A stretch of DNA of 64,000 nt from Escherichia coli (GTDB taxonomy: Bacteria > Pseudomonadota > Gammaproteobacteria > Enterobacterales > Enterobacteriaceae). The notes under the pieces are model-generated. The model was not told where the DNA came from and ran no database searches. It saw only the letters and a list, made by a program, of their open reading frames with translations. The stretch lies in assembly GCF_051903065.1 (NCBI RefSeq), contig NZ_CP178438.1. One strand, 5' to 3'. Within the stretch, counting starts at the first letter, position 1, and every line of letters starts with the position of its first letter. The translations under genes and the position numbers were made by a program. Positions 1,863 to 10,564 of the stretch are shown piece after piece.

Positions 1863-3317
1863 TTATTTTTCAATCGGATAGATAGTACCCGTATTCATAA
1901 TGCCGTTAGGATCGAATTGCTTTTTCAGCCCTTCCAGCAACGCCCACGCGCTGCCGTGTTCCAGCTTGCTCCAGTGAACGCGATGTTTACCAATGCCGTG
2001 GTGGTGCACCATCGAACCGCCGAGGCGAATGGTTTCTTCGCAGATGATTTTGTTGAGCGGATTGTGGTACTTGTCGATTTCCTCTTCCGGCTTACAGTCA
2101 ACAACGTTGTAGTCATAGACGAAGTACATGTTTGTGCCGTTCTGATAGCTATGAGAGGAGTGACCGCCCAGCATAGTGATGTCGTCGGCGTGCGGGAACT
2201 CGGTACGAATACGGTTAATAACGCTTTCGTAGATTTCGTGGATGCAGCTCCAGCAGCCGGACACTTCAGTGGTAAAGCCCATGTTGCCGGTTTTGAGGAT
2301 TTGCACACGTTCGGCAGCCACTTTATCCGGTCCCCAGTTCAGGTTGTTAAACCAGGTTTCGATCAGTTTGCTGTCCACGCGCTGGCACTGCGGGTAGCGG
2401 GCAACGATTTCCGCAATCCCTTCGCCCGTCGCCTTCGCAATGCGAGGGTTACCTTCAGCCATAAAGATCAGCACACATTTTCCGTCGGCAAAATGGGTGA
2501 AGTGTTGGGTGCCATCTTCAGCGTCATACAAACGAGCGATCGACGGACGATACCCTTCCACCATGATTTCACGCAGGATGTTGAAGCCGGTTTTCATGTC
2601 TTCCAGGATATAGCCGTAGAAGAGGTTGTTTTTCGGGGTGAATTTAAAGATTTTCACTGTTACTTCAGTGATATAGCACAATGCACCTTCGTTGCCGATG
2701 ATGATGTGACGAATGTCCGGGCCAGCCGCGCGGCGTGGCACGTTTTTAATACGTGTGACGGTGCCATCAGCCAATACGGCTTCCAGACCAACGACCATAT
2801 CTTCGATTGCGCCGTAGAGTGTGGAGAACTGCCCGATACTGCGGGTTGCTACCAGGCCGCCCATCTGCGCCAGCGGCTTTGACTGCGGAGAATGCCCAGT
2901 GGTGTAACCTTTTTCACGCAACGCGTTTTCCAGCACCTCCAGCGGAACGCCACATTGCGCCGTCGCCTGCATATTCTCAATATCAATATTAATGATTTGA
3001 TTCATGGCGGAACCGTCGAGCACCACCGAGTTTTCTACAACAGTTTCCAGCCCACCTTCGGTGGCGGAAGCACCGGTACGCGGCACACCGTTAATTTTGT
3101 GCGCATTCATAAAATTCAGCACACGGGAGACTTGTTCTGTGGAACCGAGTTTTACGACCGCAGCCGGAATCGGCAAAGTATAAATACCATGAATATCCGG
3201 AAATTTACGAAAACGGTCAATACTGTTCTTCTTTAATACTGTTTCATCGGTAATTACGCGATCTGCACCAACAATTTCCTTTAGCTGGTCGACAATCGCT
3301 GCGCGAGATAAAGACAT
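1863..3317 (-). CDS. ygcU: FAD-linked oxidoreductase (GlcD / alkyl-DHAP synthase-like)
   Basis: 484-aa ORF with an FAD-binding PCMH-type domain signature; same length and position as K-12 YgcU. Confidence 0.85.
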   Translation of the reverse strand: MSLSRAAIVDQLKEIVGADRVITDETVLKKNSIDRFRKFPDIHGIYTLPIPAAVVKLGSTEQVSRVLNFMNAHKINGVPRTGASATEGGLETVVENSVVLDGSAMNQIINIDIENMQATAQCGVPLEVLENALREKGYTTGHSPQSKPLAQMGGLVATRSIGQFSTLYGAIEDMVVGLEAVLADGTVTRIKNVPRRAAGPDIRHIIIGNEGALCYITEVTVKIFKFTPKNNLFYGYILEDMKTGFNILREIMVEGYRPSIARLYDAEDGTQHFTHFADGKCVLIFMAEGNPRIAKATGEGIAEIVARYPQCQRVDSKLIETWFNNLNWGPDKVAAERVQILKTGNMGFTTEVSGCWSCIHEIYESVINRIRTEFPHADDITMLGGHSSHSYQNGTNMYFVYDYNVVDCKPEEEIDKYHNPLNKIICEETIRLGGSMVHHHGIGKHRVHWSKLEHGSAWALLEGLKKQFDPNGIMNTGTIYPIEK

Positions 3318-3386
3318 AGTAATTCCTTCCTGATAATAAAAATGGAATAATCATTAATAAGAGAAAACAGAAACCACCGTTATGGG

Positions 3387-4172
3387 TTAGCGCACTAAAT
3401 AACCGCCATCAACCACTAATAAATGCCCGTTGACATAATTCGATGCCGGACTTGCGAGGAATACGGCTGCGCCCATTAAATCCTGAGTATCGCCCCAACG
3501 GTTTGCTGGAATATGATCAAGAACGCGCTGATTGGTTTCTGGATTACTGCGTGTCGCCAGCGTAATATCTGTTGCATAATAGCCAGGGGCGATACCATTT
3601 ACCTGAATATTATATTGACCTAGTTCATCACAATAAGCTTTGGTGAACCCGGCAAGAGCATGTTTAGTGGCAGAATATGCAGGTGACCATTGTCCACCTA
3701 AGTAAGAGAACAATGAACAGATATTAATGATTTTACCGCTTTTCTGCGGGATCATAATTTTTGCTGCTTCGTAGCTTAACTCAAATGCGGCGGTCAGGTT
3801 CACATCAATCATTGGATCCCAGTCGGCACGACCGAAGTCCAGCACCTTATTCAGCTTACAAATACCGGCATTGTTAACCAGAATATCGACGGTACCGAAA
3901 CGTTCGCAACAGGCGGCGATTATCTTCTGCGGCGCGCCTTCTGCGGTGATATCCACCTGCATGAAGTCCACCTCAACACCCTGTTTTTCAATCATTTCCT
4001 TTGTTTCGCCGTTATCTTTGACAAAACTTGGAATAAAGACATTTGCGCCTGCTTTGGCCAACGCCATGGCAAATGCCTGGCCTAAACCGCTATTCCCGCC
4101 GGTAACAATTGCGGTTTTACCTTTCAGGGAGAAAAAATCCATTGAGAACGCATTGAGAGATTCGATTGACAT
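3387..4172 (-). CDS. ygcW: Short-chain dehydrogenase/reductase (SDR) family oxidoreductase
   Basis: TGGNSGLG Rossmann motif and YxxxK catalytic motif (YSATK); start placed at MSIESLNAF (4172) instead of the longer ORF-track start. Confidence 0.85.
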   Translation of the reverse strand: MSIESLNAFSMDFFSLKGKTAIVTGGNSGLGQAFAMALAKAGANVFIPSFVKDNGETKEMIEKQGVEVDFMQVDITAEGAPQKIIAACCERFGTVDILVNNAGICKLNKVLDFGRADWDPMIDVNLTAAFELSYEAAKIMIPQKSGKIINICSLFSYLGGQWSPAYSATKHALAGFTKAYCDELGQYNIQVNGIAPGYYATDITLATRSNPETNQRVLDHIPANRWGDTQDLMGAAVFLASPASNYVNGHLLVVDGGYLVR

Positions 4173-4419
4173 AGTTAGCTCCAATTTCCGTAAGGCAAAA
4201 AAAAAGAAAGGTAACTTCCCCCGCAAGAGGGAAGTTACCTTTCTCATTATCTCTGGTAACTGGAGATAATTTTTAGCATAAGGGCATAACTGCTAATGTG
4301 ATCGTAATCACAGTGTAATATTCGTATTGTCAAATAATTTTAAAAAGCAGAAGCGTGATTACTCTCACACAACACCTCTGCTTTCCATGTTATTTATTAT
4401 TTCAATTACTAGAGACCTG

Positions 4420-4466
4420 AGAAAAGTAATCCACCTGAAAGGGCGGCTTACTTTTCTCTTTTTTTT
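4420..4466 (+). terminator. Terminator-like hairpin plus T-tract in the 5' leader of yqcE
   Basis: Inverted repeat gagaaaagtaa ... ttacttttctc followed by 9 T residues, ending about 25 bp before the yqcE ATG. Confidence 0.35.
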
Positions 4467-4490
4467 GTCTATTACAAATGGGAATACGAT

Positions 4491-5768
4491 ATGCAACACA
4501 ACTCATATCGCCGTTGGATAACCCTCGCGATAATTAGTTTTAGCGGCGGCGTTAGTTTCGACCTGGCTTATTTACGTTATATTTATCAAATTCCCATGGC
4601 GAAATTTATGGGATTCAGCAATACCGAGATAGGTTTAATAATGAGTACCTTTGGTATTGCAGCTATTATTCTTTATGCCCCCAGCGGCGTTATTGCTGAT
4701 AAATTCTCACATCGCAAAATGATTACTTCCGCGATGATCATTACCGGATTACTGGGTCTGTTAATGGCAACGTATCCACCGCTGTGGGTAATGCTCTGTA
4801 TTCAGGTCGCCTTTGCGATAACGACGATTTTAATGCTGTGGTCGGTGTCGATTAAAGCCGCATCGTTGCTTGGCGATCATAGCGAGCAAGGGAAAATTAT
4901 GGGCTGGATGGAAGGGCTGCGCGGCGTCGGTGTAATGTCGCTGGCGGTGTTTACCATGTGGGTCTTTTCTCGCTTTGCACCGGATGACAGCGCTAGCCTG
5001 AAAACGGTCATAATTATCTACAGTGTGGTTTACATCTTGTTGGGGATTCTGTGCTGGTTTTTTGTTAGCGATAACAACAACCTGTGCAGTGCCAATAACG
5101 AAGAAAAACAGTCATTCCAGCTTAGCGACATCCTGGCCGTTTTGCGCATCAGCACCACCTGGTATTGCAGCATGGTGATTTTTGGCGTCTTCACCATCTA
5201 CGCCATTCTGAGTTACTCCACCAACTATCTGACCGAAATGTATGGCATGTCGCTGGTGGCGGCGAGCTACATGGGGATTGTGATCAACAAAATCTTCCGC
5301 GCGCTGTGCGGCCCACTTGGCGGCATTATCACCACCTACAGTAAAGTGAAATCCCCTACCCGCGTGATCCAAATCCTTTCCGTACTCGGCCTGCTGGCGT
5401 TAACTGCCCTGCTCGTCACGAACTCTAACCCGCAATCGGTCGCGATGGGGATTGGCCTGATTTTACTGCTGGGATTCACCTGTTACGCCTCACGCGGGCT
5501 GTACTGGGCCTGCCCTGGCGAAGCGAGAACACCGTCTTACATTATGGGCACCACGGTAGGTATTTGTTCGGTGATTGGATTCCTGCCGGATGTCTTCGTT
5601 TACCCGATTATCGGCCACTGGCAGGACACCCTGCCCGCAGCAGAAGCCTACCGCAACATGTGGCTGATGGGCATGGCGGCGCTTGCCATGGTGATTGTCT
5701 TTACCTTTTTGCTGTTCCAAAAAATTCGTACTGCTGATATCGCCCCCACAACGGCTAACAGCAAGTAA
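4491..5768 (+). CDS. yqcE: MFS-family transporter
   Basis: 425-aa polytopic membrane protein; position and size match yqcE. Confidence 0.85.
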   Translation: MQHNSYRRWITLAIISFSGGVSFDLAYLRYIYQIPMAKFMGFSNTEIGLIMSTFGIAAIILYAPSGVIADKFSHRKMITSAMIITGLLGLLMATYPPLWVMLCIQVAFAITTILMLWSVSIKAASLLGDHSEQGKIMGWMEGLRGVGVMSLAVFTMWVFSRFAPDDSASLKTVIIIYSVVYILLGILCWFFVSDNNNLCSANNEEKQSFQLSDILAVLRISTTWYCSMVIFGVFTIYAILSYSTNYLTEMYGMSLVAASYMGIVINKIFRALCGPLGGIITTYSKVKSPTRVIQILSVLGLLALTALLVTNSNPQSVAMGIGLILLLGFTCYASRGLYWACPGEARTPSYIMGTTVGICSVIGFLPDVFVYPIIGHWQDTLPAAEAYRNMWLMGMAALAMVIVFTFLLFQKIRTADIAPTTANSK

Positions 5769-5794: not shown

Positions 5795-7273
5795 ATGTCG
5801 AAGAAATACATCATAGGGATTGATGGCGGAAGTCAGAGCACAAAAGTGGTGATGTACGATCTGGAAGGTAACGTGGTTTGCGAAGGCAAAGGTTTATTGC
5901 AGCCGATGCACACGCCAGATGCCGATACCGCAGAACATCCTGACGACGATTTATGGGCATCATTATGTTTTGCCGGTCACGATTTGATGAGTCAGTTTGC
6001 CGGGAATAAAGAAGATATTGTCGGTATTGGTCTGGGATCCATCCGTTGCTGCCGTGCGTTATTGAAAGCCGATGGCACGCCAGCTGCGCCATTGATTAGC
6101 TGGCAGGATGCACGCGTAACGCGTCCCTACGAACACACTAATCCTGACGTGGCATATGTCACCTCTTTTTCGGGTTATCTAACGCATCGCTTAACCGGCG
6201 AGTTTAAAGACAATATCGCCAACTATTTTGGTCAGTGGCCAGTGGATTATAAGAGCTGGGCATGGAGCGAAGATGCTGCGGTAATGGAGAAGTTTAATAT
6301 CCCTCGTCATATGCTGTTTGATGTGCAAATGCCTGGCACCGTCCTCGGACATATCACACCACAAGCCGCACTGGCGACACATTTCCCGGCAGGGCTGCCG
6401 GTTGTTTGTACCACCAGTGATAAACCGGTAGAAGCTCTGGGAGCCGGATTACTGGATGATGAAACGGCGGTGATTTCTCTTGGCACCTACATCGCGCTGA
6501 TGATGAACGGTAAAGCACTGCCGAAAGATCCGGTGGCGTACTGGCCGATTATGTCTTCTATACCGGAAACATTGCTGTATGAAGGGTACGGTATCCGTAA
6601 AGGCATGTGGACGGTGAGCTGGCTACGCGACATGTTAGGCGAGTCGTTAATTCAGGATGCCAAAGCACAGGATCTTTCACCGGAAGATTTGCTCAACAAA
6701 AAAGCTTCTTGTGTGCCGCCTGGCTGTAATGGTCTGATGACGGTGCTGGACTGGCTGACCAACCCGTGGGAACCCTACAAACGTGGGATTATGATCGGCT
6801 TTGATTCCAGCATGGATTACACATGGATATATCGTTCGATACTGGAAAGCGTGGCGCTGACGCTGAAGAACAATTACGACAATATGTGTAATGAAATGAA
6901 TCACTTTGCAAAGCATGTGATCATTACTGGCGGCGGTTCGAACAGCGATCTATTTATGCAAATTTTTGCCGACGTGTTCAACCTTCCGGCACGCCGTAAC
7001 GCCATTAACGGTTGTGCAAGTCTGGGGGCAGCGATCAATACGGCGGTAGGTCTGGGGCTATACCCGGATTACGCAACGGCTGTCGACAAAATGGTTCGCG
7101 TGAAAGATATCTTTATGCCTGTTGAGAGCAATGCCAAACGCTACGACGCGATGAATAAAGGTATTTTCAAAGCCCTAACCAAACATACTGATGTGATCCT
7201 GAAAAAATCGTATGAAGTGATGCATGGGGAATTGGGGAATGCGGATTCGATCCAGAGCTGGTCGAATGCGTAA
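5795..7273 (+). CDS. ygcE: FGGY-family carbohydrate kinase
   Basis: 492 aa; N-terminal IGIDGGSQSTK actin-fold ATPase motif; RBS aggag upstream. Confidence 0.85.
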   Translation: MSKKYIIGIDGGSQSTKVVMYDLEGNVVCEGKGLLQPMHTPDADTAEHPDDDLWASLCFAGHDLMSQFAGNKEDIVGIGLGSIRCCRALLKADGTPAAPLISWQDARVTRPYEHTNPDVAYVTSFSGYLTHRLTGEFKDNIANYFGQWPVDYKSWAWSEDAAVMEKFNIPRHMLFDVQMPGTVLGHITPQAALATHFPAGLPVVCTTSDKPVEALGAGLLDDETAVISLGTYIALMMNGKALPKDPVAYWPIMSSIPETLLYEGYGIRKGMWTVSWLRDMLGESLIQDAKAQDLSPEDLLNKKASCVPPGCNGLMTVLDWLTNPWEPYKRGIMIGFDSSMDYTWIYRSILESVALTLKNNYDNMCNEMNHFAKHVIITGGGSNSDLFMQIFADVFNLPARRNAINGCASLGAAINTAVGLGLYPDYATAVDKMVRVKDIFMPVESNAKRYDAMNKGIFKALTKHTDVILKKSYEVMHGELGNADSIQSWSNA

Positions 7274-7319
7274 GTGAGGAAGACCGGGCGGGAAACTGCC
7301 CGGCCTGAACATACCTGAA

Positions 7320-7457
7320 TGGTTATCCCCGCTGGCGCGGGGAACATAAGTTCGACAACTTAAAAAATGATAACAAGTCCGGTTTATCCCCGCTGATGCA
7401 GGGAACATAATAAAAACTTTAACTAGTTCGGTTTATCCCTGTTTTTACAAGGAATAT
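7320..7457 (-). CRISPR. Degenerate CRISPR mini-array (3 type I-E-like repeats, 2 spacers)
   Basis: Repeats tggttatccccgctggcgcggggaacat (7320-7347), cggtttatccccgctgatgcagggaacat (7380-7408), cggtttatccctgtttttacaaggaatat (7429-7457); one 32-bp spacer and one 20-bp spacer; same orientation as the main array. Confidence 0.75.
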
Positions 7458-7519
7458 TAACTACACTCGATGTCTTTAGAATAAAAGACAATACGAATCG
7501 CACTTTATCAATTTTCACT

Positions 7520-8576
7520 GGCTTTGTTGAATAAATCGAACTTTTGCTGAGTTGAAGGATCAGATCACGTATCTTCCCGACAACGCAGACCGTTCCGTGG
7601 CAAAGCAAAAGTTCAAAATCACCAACTGGCCCACCTACAATAAAGCCCTCATCAACCGTGGCTCCATAACTTTCTGGCTGGATGATGAAGCTATTCAGGC
7701 CTGGTATGAGTCAGCAACACCTTCTTCACGAGGCAGACCTCAGCGCTATTCTGACCTTGCCATCACGACTGTGCTGGTCATTAAACGCGTATTCAGGCTG
7801 ACCCTGCGCGCTGCGCAGGGCTTTATTGATTCCATTTTTTCTCTGATGAACGTTCCGCTACGCTGCCCGGATTACAGCTGTGTCAGCAGGCGGGCAAAGT
7901 CGGTTAATGTCAGTTTCAAAACGCCCACCCGGGGTGAAATCGCACACCTGGTAATTGATTCCACCGGGCTGAAGGTCTTCGGTGAAGGCGAGTGGAAAGT
8001 CAAAAAGCATGGCCAGGAACGCCGCCGTATCTGGCGTAAGCTGCATCTCGCCGTTGACAGTAAAACACATGAAATCATCTGCGCTGACCTGTCGCTGAAC
8101 AACGTTACGGACTCAGAGGCCTTCCCCGGGTTAATCCGGCAAACCCACCGGAAAATCAGGTCAGCCGCCGCCGATGGCGCTTACGATACCCGGCTATGTC
8201 ACGATGAACTGCGGCGTAAGAAAATCAGCGCGCTTATCCCTCCCCGAAAAGGTGCGGGTTACTGGCCCGGTGAATATGCAGACCGTAACCGTGCAGTGGC
8301 TAATCAGCGAATGACCGGGAGTAATGCGCGGTGGAAATGGACAACAGATTACAACCGTCGCTCGATAGCGGAAACGGCGATGTACCGGGTAAAACAGCTG
8401 TTCGGGGGTTCACTGACACTGCGTGACTACGATGGTCAGGTTGCAGAGGCTATGGCCCTGGTACGAGCGCTGAACAAAATGACGAAAGCAGGTATGCCTG
8501 AAAGCGTGCGTATTGCCTGAAAACACAACCCGCTACGGGGGAGACTTACCCGAAATCTGATTTATTCAACAAAGCC
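7520..8576 (+). mobile_element. IS903-family (IS5 superfamily) insertion sequence, 1057 bp
   Basis: Perfect 18-bp terminal inverted repeats (ggctttgttgaataaatc at 7520; reverse complement ending at 8576); flanked by a 9-bp direct repeat attttcact at 7511-7519 and 8577-8585 (target-site duplication). Confidence 0.92.
7597..8520 (+). CDS. IS903-type DDE transposase
   Basis: Protein ...AKQKFKITNWPTYNKALINRGSITFWLDDEAIQAWYESATPSSRGRPQRYSDLAITTVLVIKR... matches the IS903/IS102 transposase as I recall it; probable GTG start at 7597 (the ORF-track start at 7552 is a TTG extension). Confidence 0.88.
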   Translation: MAKQKFKITNWPTYNKALINRGSITFWLDDEAIQAWYESATPSSRGRPQRYSDLAITTVLVIKRVFRLTLRAAQGFIDSIFSLMNVPLRCPDYSCVSRRAKSVNVSFKTPTRGEIAHLVIDSTGLKVFGEGEWKVKKHGQERRRIWRKLHLAVDSKTHEIICADLSLNNVTDSEAFPGLIRQTHRKIRSAAADGAYDTRLCHDELRRKKISALIPPRKGAGYWPGEYADRNRAVANQRMTGSNARWKWTTDYNRRSIAETAMYRVKQLFGGSLTLRDYDGQVAEAMALVRALNKMTKAGMPESVRIA

Positions 8577-8976
8577 ATTTTCACTTAAAGTATGAACAGG
8601 ATATCTTTATTCATAAGAACTATTCATCAACAGCGTATAGAGGCGGTTATGTAAAACCACTCATTAGCCTCAAAACAAAGACAAATTTCCAGATTTATTA
8701 CTTAATCAATGAATAACAAGCTTAAAAAATACACTGTTATTCTAAAGAAAAAATTAACAGGCATTAATTAATATTAAAAAAATAATATATTAAAATTTCT
8801 TAACGGTTTAAGGATTATACAAATAACACTTTGATTAAATTTGATTTTTTGTATCGATAATTGTGAACTTATCTGGCATGGGGAACTATTTTGAACATGA
8901 GGTGTTACGTGGATATGTTGCTTATTACAAGTACAGCTAATATAAAAACTTGAGAAAGAGATAACGGGTTATATGG

Positions 8977-9554
8977 TGGTTTATCCCCGCTGGCGCGGGG
9001 AACTCGTACTGACGGATAAAAATAATACCTTTTGCGGCGGTTTATCCCCGCTGGCGCGGGGAACTCGTCAACGTTTTTCATGTGGGCATGAGTTGGGGCG
9101 GTTTATCCCCGCTGGCGCGGGGAACTCTATTCGGCCTCGTGCTGGTCGTGACAAAATACCGGTTTATCCCCGCTAGCGCGGGGAACTCTGGCGATATTGC
9201 CTACCGCAACAAAGAAAATACGGTTTATCCCCGCTAGCGCGGGGAACTCATCCACGAATCCAGTGCAAATGAGTTTGTTGGCGGTTTATCCCCGCTAGCG
9301 CGGGGAACTCATTGTGACTACCACCGATAACCCCGCAACCACCGGTTTATCCCCGCTAGCGCGGGGAACTCCTGCATTCGCCTGCGGTTATCAGATCGCT
9401 AAACGGTTTATCCCCGCTAGCGCGGGGAACTCGCTGCCATTACTTCCCGCCAGCGTTGCTCTGGCGGTTTATCCCCGCTAGCGCGGGGAACTCGCAGAGA
9501 ATCGTTCGATTGCCCCTACATCTTCCGGTTTATCCCCGCTGGCGCGGGGAACTC
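8977..9554 (-). CRISPR. CRISPR array, type I-E (E. coli-type) repeats, 10 repeats / 9 spacers
   Basis: 29-bp repeat cggtttatccccgctggcgcggggaactc (reverse complement of GAGTTCCCCGCGCCAGCGGGGATAAACCG) with an exact 61-bp period; nine 32-bp spacers at 9006, 9067, 9128, 9189, 9250, 9311, 9372, 9433, 9494; the first repeat has t instead of c at its first base. Confidence 0.97.
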
Positions 9555-9760
9555 TCTAAACATAACCTATTATTAATTAATGATTTTTTAAGCCAGTCAC
9601 AATCTACCAACTTTACAGTATCACACAAACAACACATCCATTATGTTAAAGAGCGCTTAATCCATTGATTAAAAAGGTAAATATTTAAAATAACTCTATA
9701 CAAACTAAAATCTACCAAACTTTACCGCAATAATTTTCACTCCAACGAAAAATTAACGCC
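9555..9760 (-). promoter_or_regulatory. CRISPR leader (AT-rich, contains the array promoter and integration signals)
   Basis: The sequence abutting repeat 10 (reverse complement ...ATAATAGGTTATGTTTAGA) matches the conserved E. coli leader-repeat junction as I recall it; AT-rich tract; the far boundary is approximate. Confidence 0.7.
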
Positions 9761-9892
9761 ACAGAATTTGTAGAGAATGATAATGATTAGTCCAGGATGG
9801 GCAAAATGGAGGTTTTTCAGAGGCGACAAAGAATATAAATGAGTAGAAGTCTTTACAGGTTCCACCCATTTATAACGCTTATAAAAGTTTAA

Positions 9893-10564
9893 TCAGGCAA
9901 TATTTAGATATTTATGTGTTTGCATCGACAAACGCCAATTACGCGCAATGCAGATTTCAATGCACAATCGTGTGGCATCATCCTTTTGGCTAATCGGCTG
10001 CAGTGCAATGACTCGCGGTTTATCATCGGTCAGCGTTGCCAATAGTTCATCCAGTGCTTCAATATCGCGTACGCGCCCCACTGGATGCTTGATTTCGTTG
10101 GCTCGCTCCAGTGCCTGTGACAACACTTCATAGCCGCCGCGCATGTTCAGCTTTGGCGATACGGTAACCCAGGTATTCGGTGTGCAGCGTACCTCATGAG
10201 TACCACTGGTTTCGATCTGGCAGCTAAAACCGTTCTTTTCGAGCAGATCAGTCAGTGGTAGCAAATCATGAATGCAAGGCTCACCACCCGTAATCACCAC
10301 ATGCCGCGCGGTGTATCCCTGGCGACTAATGACAGCCAACAAGTCTTCACTGCTCGCCGCCCCCCACTTATCACTCTCTTTGGTCTTCGCCAGAATGCTG
10401 AAAAGGGAGACTTCCCGATCCTCAAGCTTTTCCCAGGTGTGTTTGGTGTCGCACCAGGCACAGCCAACCGGGCATCCCTGTAAACGAATAAAAATGGCGG
10501 GGACGCCGGTAAAGTAACCCTCACCTTGCAGGGTCTGGAACATCTCGTTAATCGGGTACTGCAT
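9893..10564 (-). CDS. queE: 7-carboxy-7-deazaguanine synthase (radical SAM)
   Basis: 223 aa, MQYPINEMFQTLQGEGYFTGVPAIFIRLQGCPVGCAWCDTKHTW with the CxxxCxxC radical-SAM cluster motif. Confidence 0.9.
   Translation of the reverse strand: MQYPINEMFQTLQGEGYFTGVPAIFIRLQGCPVGCAWCDTKHTWEKLEDREVSLFSILAKTKESDKWGAASSEDLLAVISRQGYTARHVVITGGEPCIHDLLPLTDLLEKNGFSCQIETSGTHEVRCTPNTWVTVSPKLNMRGGYEVLSQALERANEIKHPVGRVRDIEALDELLATLTDDKPRVIALQPISQKDDATRLCIEICIARNWRLSMQTHKYLNIA

Follow-up and report, generated by a model that had tools for sequence, protein, structure and literature searches.

The CRISPR-II region of E. coli has been reported to hold the arrays CRISPR2.2 and CRISPR2.3, which are 'separated by 0.5 kb' (PMC3903273), and CRISPR2.2 has been described as having 'two invariable spacers' (PMC4489801). 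Published leaders lie only beside CRISPR2.1 and CRISPR2.3 (PMC3903273, PMC3737337). The repeat-proximal 40-60 bp of a leader are required for spacer integration (cited in PMC3737337), and boxA elements have been found upstream of enterobacterial CRISPR arrays (PMC7665894). IS elements in the CRISPR-II flanking region of E. coli/Shigella were reported to be 'with no apparent impact' (PMC3903273).

Promoter islands, as defined by the Ozoline group, are stretches of 300 bp or more in which PlatProm places no fewer than 8 start points per 100 bp. All 78 of these islands bind RNA polymerase in vivo, few are transcribed and full-length RNA is rare (PMC2731890). One of them, at 2901670-2902016 of K-12 (2901670_347; U00096.2), lies between ygcE (+) and queE (-) and was classed as 'intergenic convergent' (PMC3661553 Table 1, Table S1). 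It is bound by H-NS 'according to all studies' (column 'A') of the ChIP compared (PMC3661553).

The AT-rich spacer of the CRISPR-II region

Analysis of the window, which is the whole 64-kb stretch of DNA that was analysed, revealed it to contain an E. coli CRISPR-II region flanked by ygcE and queE (Table 1). The order of genes and arrays in IS-free genomes, including K-12 MG1655 and O157, was ygcE, a three-repeat mini-array, ~0.45 kb of AT-rich DNA, a variable type I-E array, a leader starting TCTAAACATAACC and queE. All the parts expected of a CRISPR-II region split into CRISPR2.2 and CRISPR2.3 were found in the window (ygcE, a 3-repeat array, a gap of ~0.5 kb, a variable array, leader2.3 and queE). 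As this layout matches the published CRISPR2.2/CRISPR2.3 arrangement, the AT-rich tract at 8577-8976 is the already-known inter-array spacer, and its biology is likewise already known and ordinary. It shares with the published spacer the same ygcE/queE position, a three-repeat mini-array with invariant spacers and an identity of 92-100% across E. coli, and was 96.5% identical to K-12. It differs in that an IS903-group element lies 61 bp from the mini-array, at a junction that was found in 0/5426 complete genomes. We consider the tract, with a probability of roughly 0.75, to be a conserved, E. coli-specific AT-rich spacer (~0.45-0.5 kb), lying between a fossil CRISPR2.2 and an active CRISPR2.3, that is a silent promoter island and has no working leader.

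Table 1. Position of features in and around the CRISPR-II region of the window
Feature	Position (bp)	Strand	Description
ygcE (FGGY-family sugar kinase)	5795-7273	+	CRISPR-II left flank; ORF; annotated ygcE at orthologous loci
Mini-array CRISPR2.2	7319-7457	-	Repeats 7319-7347 (24/29), 7380-7408 (24/29) and degenerate 7429-7457 (18/29)
Native inter-array remnant	7459-7519		61 bp, joined to the mini-array; 7511-7519 is the left target-site-duplication copy
IS903-group IS (IS5 family)	7520-8576	+	1057 bp; perfect 18-bp terminal inverted repeats; transposase ORF 7552-8520
AT-rich tract	8577-8976		Most of the ~0.5-kb CRISPR2.2-CRISPR2.3 spacer; 8577-8585 is the right target-site-duplication copy
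K-12 promoter island equivalent	~8611-8957		Coordinates of PMC3661553 mapped via NC_000913.3; approximate
IHF consensus match	8824-8836	-	Exact WATCAANNNNTTR (AATCAAAGTGTTA)
Fossil repeat fragment	8860-8888	+	8873-8887 CTGGCATGGGGAACT corresponds to repeat positions 14-28, 13/15 matching
Main array CRISPR2.3	8977-9554	-	10 repeats, 61-bp spacing, 9 spacers; annotated 'CRISPR' at orthologous loci
leader2.3 (true leader)	9555-9892	-	Ends at queE start; core 9555-9614 begins TCTAAACATAACC
queE (ygcF)	9893-10564	-	CRISPR-II right flank; ORF; annotation at orthologous loci

The initial annotation had described about 400 bp of strongly AT-rich DNA, free of ORFs, between the IS and the main array. 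This was borne out, as the G+C content of the tract was 27.0% compared to 50.7% for the 64-kb window and its longest ORF was 25 aa. Only 0.04% of 400-bp windows were this low in G+C, with a minimum of 26.5% in the one starting at 8552. The first repeat of the main array, which had been called degenerate, does adjoin the tract at 8977; however, this repeat (8977-9005) matched 28/29 consensus positions, so the description was overstated.

The left edge of the tract is the exact end of the IS. The first nine nucleotides of the tract (8577-8585) are duplicated target, because copies of the target-site duplication of the IS lie at 7511-7519 and 8577-8585, and the native sequence restarts at 8586. 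In IS-free genomes 7519 runs directly into 8586; the tract of one IS-free relative, Res13-Sevr-PER07-33, was 100% identical. The remnant on the other side of the IS (7459-7519) was 100% conserved in E. coli and 84% in strain E69. The IS had also been said to cut the tract off from the mini-array; it does stand between the two, but these 61 bp of native flank are still attached to the array.

The - strand of the mini-array is inferred from the repeat orientation that it has in common with CRISPR2.3 and from the position of leader2.3. Identity over the mini-array region was 98-100% for every E. coli allele compared. Two mini-array units, 7363-7408 and 7412-7457, each consisting of a repeat (2 or 3) and its upstream 17 nt, make up a 49-bp tandem duplication and are 74% identical; strain E69 has one chimeric copy in place of this duplication (locus L010, 5570-5615). 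In CRISPR2.3, six consecutive internal repeats (9160-9493) have GCTAGCGC in place of GCTGGCGC, which was found in the three leader-distal repeats and in the single leader-proximal repeat. This pattern is at odds with simple copying of the leader-proximal repeat and suggests recombination inside the array.

BLAST analysis of the tract revealed it to be present as a single copy in 4163/5426 complete E. coli genomes at 92-100% identity, where it was always chromosomal and almost never annotated. No paralogue was found in the same 5426 genomes, even by sensitive blastn, and the tract had no match in phages. The three 'plasmid' matches were to records of 4.8-4.9 Mb in length, which are thus mislabelled chromosomes. 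A mobile-element origin of the tract was rejected on these three grounds. E. albertii, E. whittamii and E. coli MS8345 were found to encode one array, which ran from a ygcE-side TGGTTATCCCC terminal repeat straight to leader2.3 and lacked the tract; the tract is therefore dispensable. Genomes of this kind were searched for with a chimeric query made of the ygcE-side array end and the leader, which returned a single-array count of 780; this count is confounded by O157 genomes with a very short CRISPR2.3 and was used to choose examples only. Strain U13A (NZ_CP035477.1; locus 2653-5157) had no CRISPR-II after ygcE and encoded an aminoimidazole riboside kinase and a carbohydrate porin there instead; loci of this type made up approximately 1/10 of the rows in a spread listing of matches to the chimeric query.

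A divergent allele of the tract, with 72% identity, was present in 'E. coli' strain E69 (CP089930.1; locus L010, 5678-6078). This allele had no match in the 5426 complete E. coli genomes, and E69 is probably a member of a cryptic Escherichia clade that was labelled E. coli.

Comparison of the tract with CRISPR leaders

As proposed in the initial annotation, the tract occupies the leader or promoter side of the mini-array: every repeat points the same way, and leader2.3 is found to the right of the main array. The tract is also the leader-distal (trailer) flank of the main array, the leader of which is on the opposite side, from 9555 onward, and is not the tract. leader2.3 was 93-98% conserved in E. 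coli and 95% conserved even in E69. On its - strand, leader2.3 contains a boxA-like sequence (GCTCTTTAACAT, 9643-9654) with one mismatch to the consensus and, immediately upstream of this, an exact IHF consensus (AATCAATGGATTA, 9658-9670); the two sites lie about 90-115 nt from the first repeat.

The E. coli type I-E leaders (leader2.3 and K-12 leader2.1) resemble the tract in being AT-rich, non-coding and transcription-upstream of repeats of the same type, although only 61 bp of such DNA are contiguous with the mini-array here. The differences are that the tract shares no sequence with them, lacks a repeat-proximal core and a boxA, and shows neither purifying selection nor turnover of adjoining spacers. 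The initial annotation had named a lack of similarity to CRISPR leaders as refuting its reading, and no such similarity was found. A Smith-Waterman alignment of the tract with leader2.3 and K-12 leader2.1, in either orientation, scored at the chance level (z = 1.0-1.5 relative to shuffles). A profile of six tract alleles, searched with nhmmer --max, matched the orthologous tracts only; it matched neither leader and nothing in 88 ygcE loci of other species. The 60 nt that follow 7457 were also aligned to the leaders in an anchored manner, and the identities, 20/60 positions for leader2.3 and 13/60 for leader2.1, were at the chance level. The anchored cores of leader2.3 and leader2.1 shared 37/60 positions with each other, a value attained by 0/2000 shuffles. 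No boxA (GCTCTTTAACAT) was present in the tract at up to 2 mismatches, and its only - strand match was the one in leader2.3.

It had been suggested that the tract may still hold promoter or IHF-type signals. It contains one exact IHF consensus on the - strand, as does leader2.3, but in IS-free sequence this lies ~300 bp away from the mini-array, which is not where the integration-guiding site of a leader would sit. There were 6 matches to this consensus in the 64 kb compared to 2.7 expected. Promoter-like sites were dense in the tract, but not above the density expected from its composition. Those on the - strand, toward the mini-array, included one at 8744 with a score of 10.4 and numbered 5 compared to 7.8 in shuffles.

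It has to be asked whether the tract is a vestigial or weakly active leader of CRISPR2.2, the promoter portion of which the IS now parts from the array. It has the right side and orientation for the mini-array repeats and is AT-rich, as all leaders are, and it has the IHF match and the - strand promoter-like sites given above; the missing homology is not decisive, as different arrays may have leaders with very little resemblance to each other (PMC2886076). We nevertheless regard this as quite improbable. The absent leader core, the absent boxA and the shortfall of - strand promoter-like sites all count against it. Of the three mini-array repeats, the one on the side of the tract has decayed furthest (18/29), which is the reverse of what a leader-proximal repeat would show. 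The mini-array spacers are invariant and show no sign of acquisition; with 98-100% identity among E. coli alleles, the mini-array lacks the polarised spacer turnover expected beside a working leader. The tract has evolved about five times faster than leader2.3, and the literature gives CRISPR2.2 no leader (PMC3903273, PMC3737337). The tract is not a working CRISPR leader and should not be annotated as one, and the value of this result is mostly as a correction.

Proposed promoter island, sequence constraint and origin of the tract

The K-12 ygcE/queE promoter island (Shavkunov et al. 2009; Panyukov and Ozoline 2013) mapped inside the orthologous tract, which is likewise AT-rich and a maximum of sigma70-like sites. 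Two differences are that H-NS and RNA polymerase occupancy is known for K-12 only and that the island class is defined by PlatProm, for which a PWM served as a proxy here. Any version shift between 1942 and 1996 keeps the K-12 island within the tract; the shift from U00096.2 to NC_000913.3, which we take to be ~1976 bp, places it at ~8611-8957. Of the 78 promoter islands published, three are located at CRISPR-associated sites or directly beside the CRISPR-II locus, namely those at casA/cas3, ygcE/queE and queE/yqcG/ygcG (K-12 coordinates, PMC3661553).

A -35/-10 PWM scan revealed the tract to have 13 sigma70-like sites per 400 bp, which was the maximum of the window (mean 2.5). This density was the same as that of dinucleotide shuffles of the tract. 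A consensus promoter scan found three sites on the + strand of the tract and none on the - strand, and the regional count was 6 compared to a shuffle expectation of 4.7. The H-NS nucleation motif TCGATAAATT was uninformative, with 79 matches in the window compared to 66 expected.

A sequence divergence reference was provided by strain E69, the ygcE of which differs from that of the window at 7.2% of nucleotides. An alignment of the two tract alleles showed 72% identity, with 24% substitutions and 28 gap columns, compared to a divergence of 27.9% at the four-fold degenerate sites of ygcE. The G+C content of both alleles was 26-29%. On alignment, the tract sequence appears to drift about neutrally while its composition is kept. 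The locus offers a contrast between a constrained leader, which is 95% identical between the window and E69 against 28% synonymous-site divergence, and a near-neutral AT-rich spacer beside it that is H-NS-bound in K-12. This contrast favours the view that 'promoter islands' arise as a by-product of base composition and are not sequence-specific elements. Two sub-blocks of the tract (8586-8682 and 8801-8868) showed approximately half the neutral divergence from E69. Within E. coli, the tract differed from that of the window by 3.6-7.9% compared to 14-17% at ygcE four-fold sites; this lower divergence may reflect some constraint, or else differing local genealogies or recombination. The 14-17% was found between this strain and K-12, O157 and EECO1006. 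As this far exceeds the level typical of E. coli core genes, deeply diverged alleles seem to exist in the ygcE region.

The preferred reading of a silent promoter island would explain these properties as follows. The tract would be non-coding DNA under little or no sequence-specific constraint, the low G+C content of which makes it a promoter island; overlapping sigma70-like hexamers would load RNA polymerase, and H-NS would coat and silence the DNA, as in published ChIP of the K-12 orthologue. Its present role would be compositional. As a buffer, the tract could keep - strand pre-crRNA from leader2.3 (9555 onward) off ygcE antisense; no terminator-like site was detected on the - strand of the tract, which counts against a buffer or termination role. 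It is very unlikely, in our view, that the tract is a selected H-NS/RNA polymerase 'sink' which ends the CRISPR2.3 pre-crRNA and shields ygcE, and that IS903 re-awakens CRISPR2.2 or makes CRISPR2.3 antisense. The effect of IS903 would then come from a hybrid outward promoter at 7507 or from disruption of the H-NS filament.

There is next to no likelihood that the tract encodes an unannotated product, whether from the 25-aa ORF (8863-8940) or as a small RNA, for example the predicted HB_171, which was placed between ygcE and ygcF (cited in PMC2731890). The ORF is open in K-12 and O157 and is present in E69 with an in-frame 9-nt deletion. However, comparison of the window with O157 revealed 7 non-synonymous and 1 synonymous codon changes, a substitution pattern on which the ORF was rejected as a gene; additionally, its internal ATG is lost in E69 and it has no Shine-Dalgarno sequence. 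PGAP annotated nothing at the tract in thousands of genomes. An Rfam scan at a permissive E-value gave no match to the tract, with chance hits over the repeats only, and RNA folding of both strands of the tract showed no excess stability relative to shuffles (z = -0.08 and -0.94).

Analysis of the right-hand part of the tract revealed a fossil of the CRISPR repeat (Table 1). Its local alignment score of 22 was attained by 0/500 shuffles and its ungapped match of 16/29 by 4/500. The fossil was weaker in other tract alleles and weak or absent in O157 and E69. Judged by this decayed repeat, the right-hand ~100 bp of the tract would be an old array end. At least the edges of the spacer would be decayed array, because there is a fossil at 8860-8888 and the third mini-array repeat is degenerate. 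A search for a periodic 61-bp repeat signal over the tract found this one fossil only.

The whole tract might then be a former repeat-spacer array that decayed in place by AT-biased mutation, so that repeats are recognisable only at the edges. The fossil is in array orientation, the degenerate repeat 7429-7457 shows 8 GC-to-AT changes and 1 AT-to-GC change relative to its sister copy, and the two fossil repeats are 365 bp apart in IS-free sequence, close to 6 x 61 = 366. Against this, there are no further periodic repeat traces over the ~365 bp, and the distance from the fossil to the next repeat is 117 bp, which is no multiple of 61. A drop in G+C from ~55% to 27% beside perfect flanking repeats would also be very uneven decay, and the alleles of O157 and E69 have a weak fossil or none at all. 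Decay of a whole array in place is therefore unlikely.

Somewhat better placed, though still doubtful, is that the block which extends from the 3' end of repeat 1 and takes in the tract (~565 bp, not counting the IS) is a foreign AT-rich insertion that split an ancestral single array, CRISPR2.2-3. E. albertii, E. whittamii and Escherichia sp. MOD1-EC7003 have a single array with the same TGGTTATCCCC first repeat and lack the tract. The tract is strongly AT-rich and, by K-12 ChIP, H-NS-bound, in which it resembles foreign DNA. PMC3661553 tabulates five predictors of foreign DNA, two of which flag the ygcE/queE island. The repeats inside the block end in their own ...AACAT. However, no donor was found in phages, plasmids, the 88 ygcE loci of other species or other regions of E. 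coli genomes, and the block is old, as the divergent lineage E69 has it too. Repeat-repeat recombination would readily delete the block and leave a chimeric first repeat of the MS8345 type (TGGTTATCC...GGGGAACTC), so the absence of the block in the outgroups can be secondary. For the single-array forms within E. coli, loss by repeat-repeat recombination is more parsimonious than insertion, as the first repeat of MS8345 is the chimera expected from such a deletion.

The IS903-group insertion

The IS between the mini-array and the tract has the properties of the IS903 group, namely a length of ~1.06 kb, 18-bp inverted repeats, a 9-bp duplication and one DDE transposase. The target-site duplication, ATTTTCACT, is direct and perfect. 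The transposase scored 357 bits against NF033579 (NCBIfam IS5-family; cutoff 140) and also matched Pfam DDE_Tnp_1. Related copies in E. coli genomes were annotated as 'IS5-like element IS903B family transposase', and the IS was present as a single copy within the 64-kb window. None of the 5426 complete E. coli genomes had a record covering at least 80% of the probe for the IS junction. The insertion is strain-specific, since no complete genome has the same junction, and is recent and incidental.

Read-out from the IS had been suggested to drive antisense transcription into the main array, and such read-out is physically possible on the arrangement of the genes. In this explanation the IS would alter expression either by + strand read-through from the transposase gene, giving CRISPR2.3 antisense RNA, or by a hybrid promoter at its left end that reads into CRISPR2.2. 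The transposase is encoded on the + strand up to 8520, after which no + strand terminator-like site was detected before 8977, and + strand promoter-like sites lie at 8791, 8914 and 8972 (PWM scores 11.4-11.7). On the - strand, a promoter-like site at 7507 (PWM score 8.0) spans the IS end and its flank. These signals are consensus matches at the density expected from composition, and H-NS over the tract would counter the elongation of IS read-through. IS903 transposase expression is very low, which also counts against read-out. An effect of the IS on expression is accordingly a poor prospect. The hybrid hexamer pair at 7489-7519 (- strand; IS end 7519/7520) is made up in part of the IS terminal repeat and in part of the flank, faces the mini-array and is a candidate outward promoter.

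The IS breaks nothing that the evidence marks as functional, and the insertion is on present evidence a strain marker and nothing beyond that. It is like the sporadic IS insertions reported in E. coli/Shigella CRISPR loci (PMC3903273) in the region that it occupies and differs from them in the element, which is of the IS903 group, and in its new site. In NZ_LR536431.1 (locus L005, 840-3034), an IS3 and an IS1A were found between ygcE and CRISPR2.3, and only the last 34 bp of the tract were kept. As this genome also has IS elements in the same region, the AT-rich spacer is a recurrent IS target.
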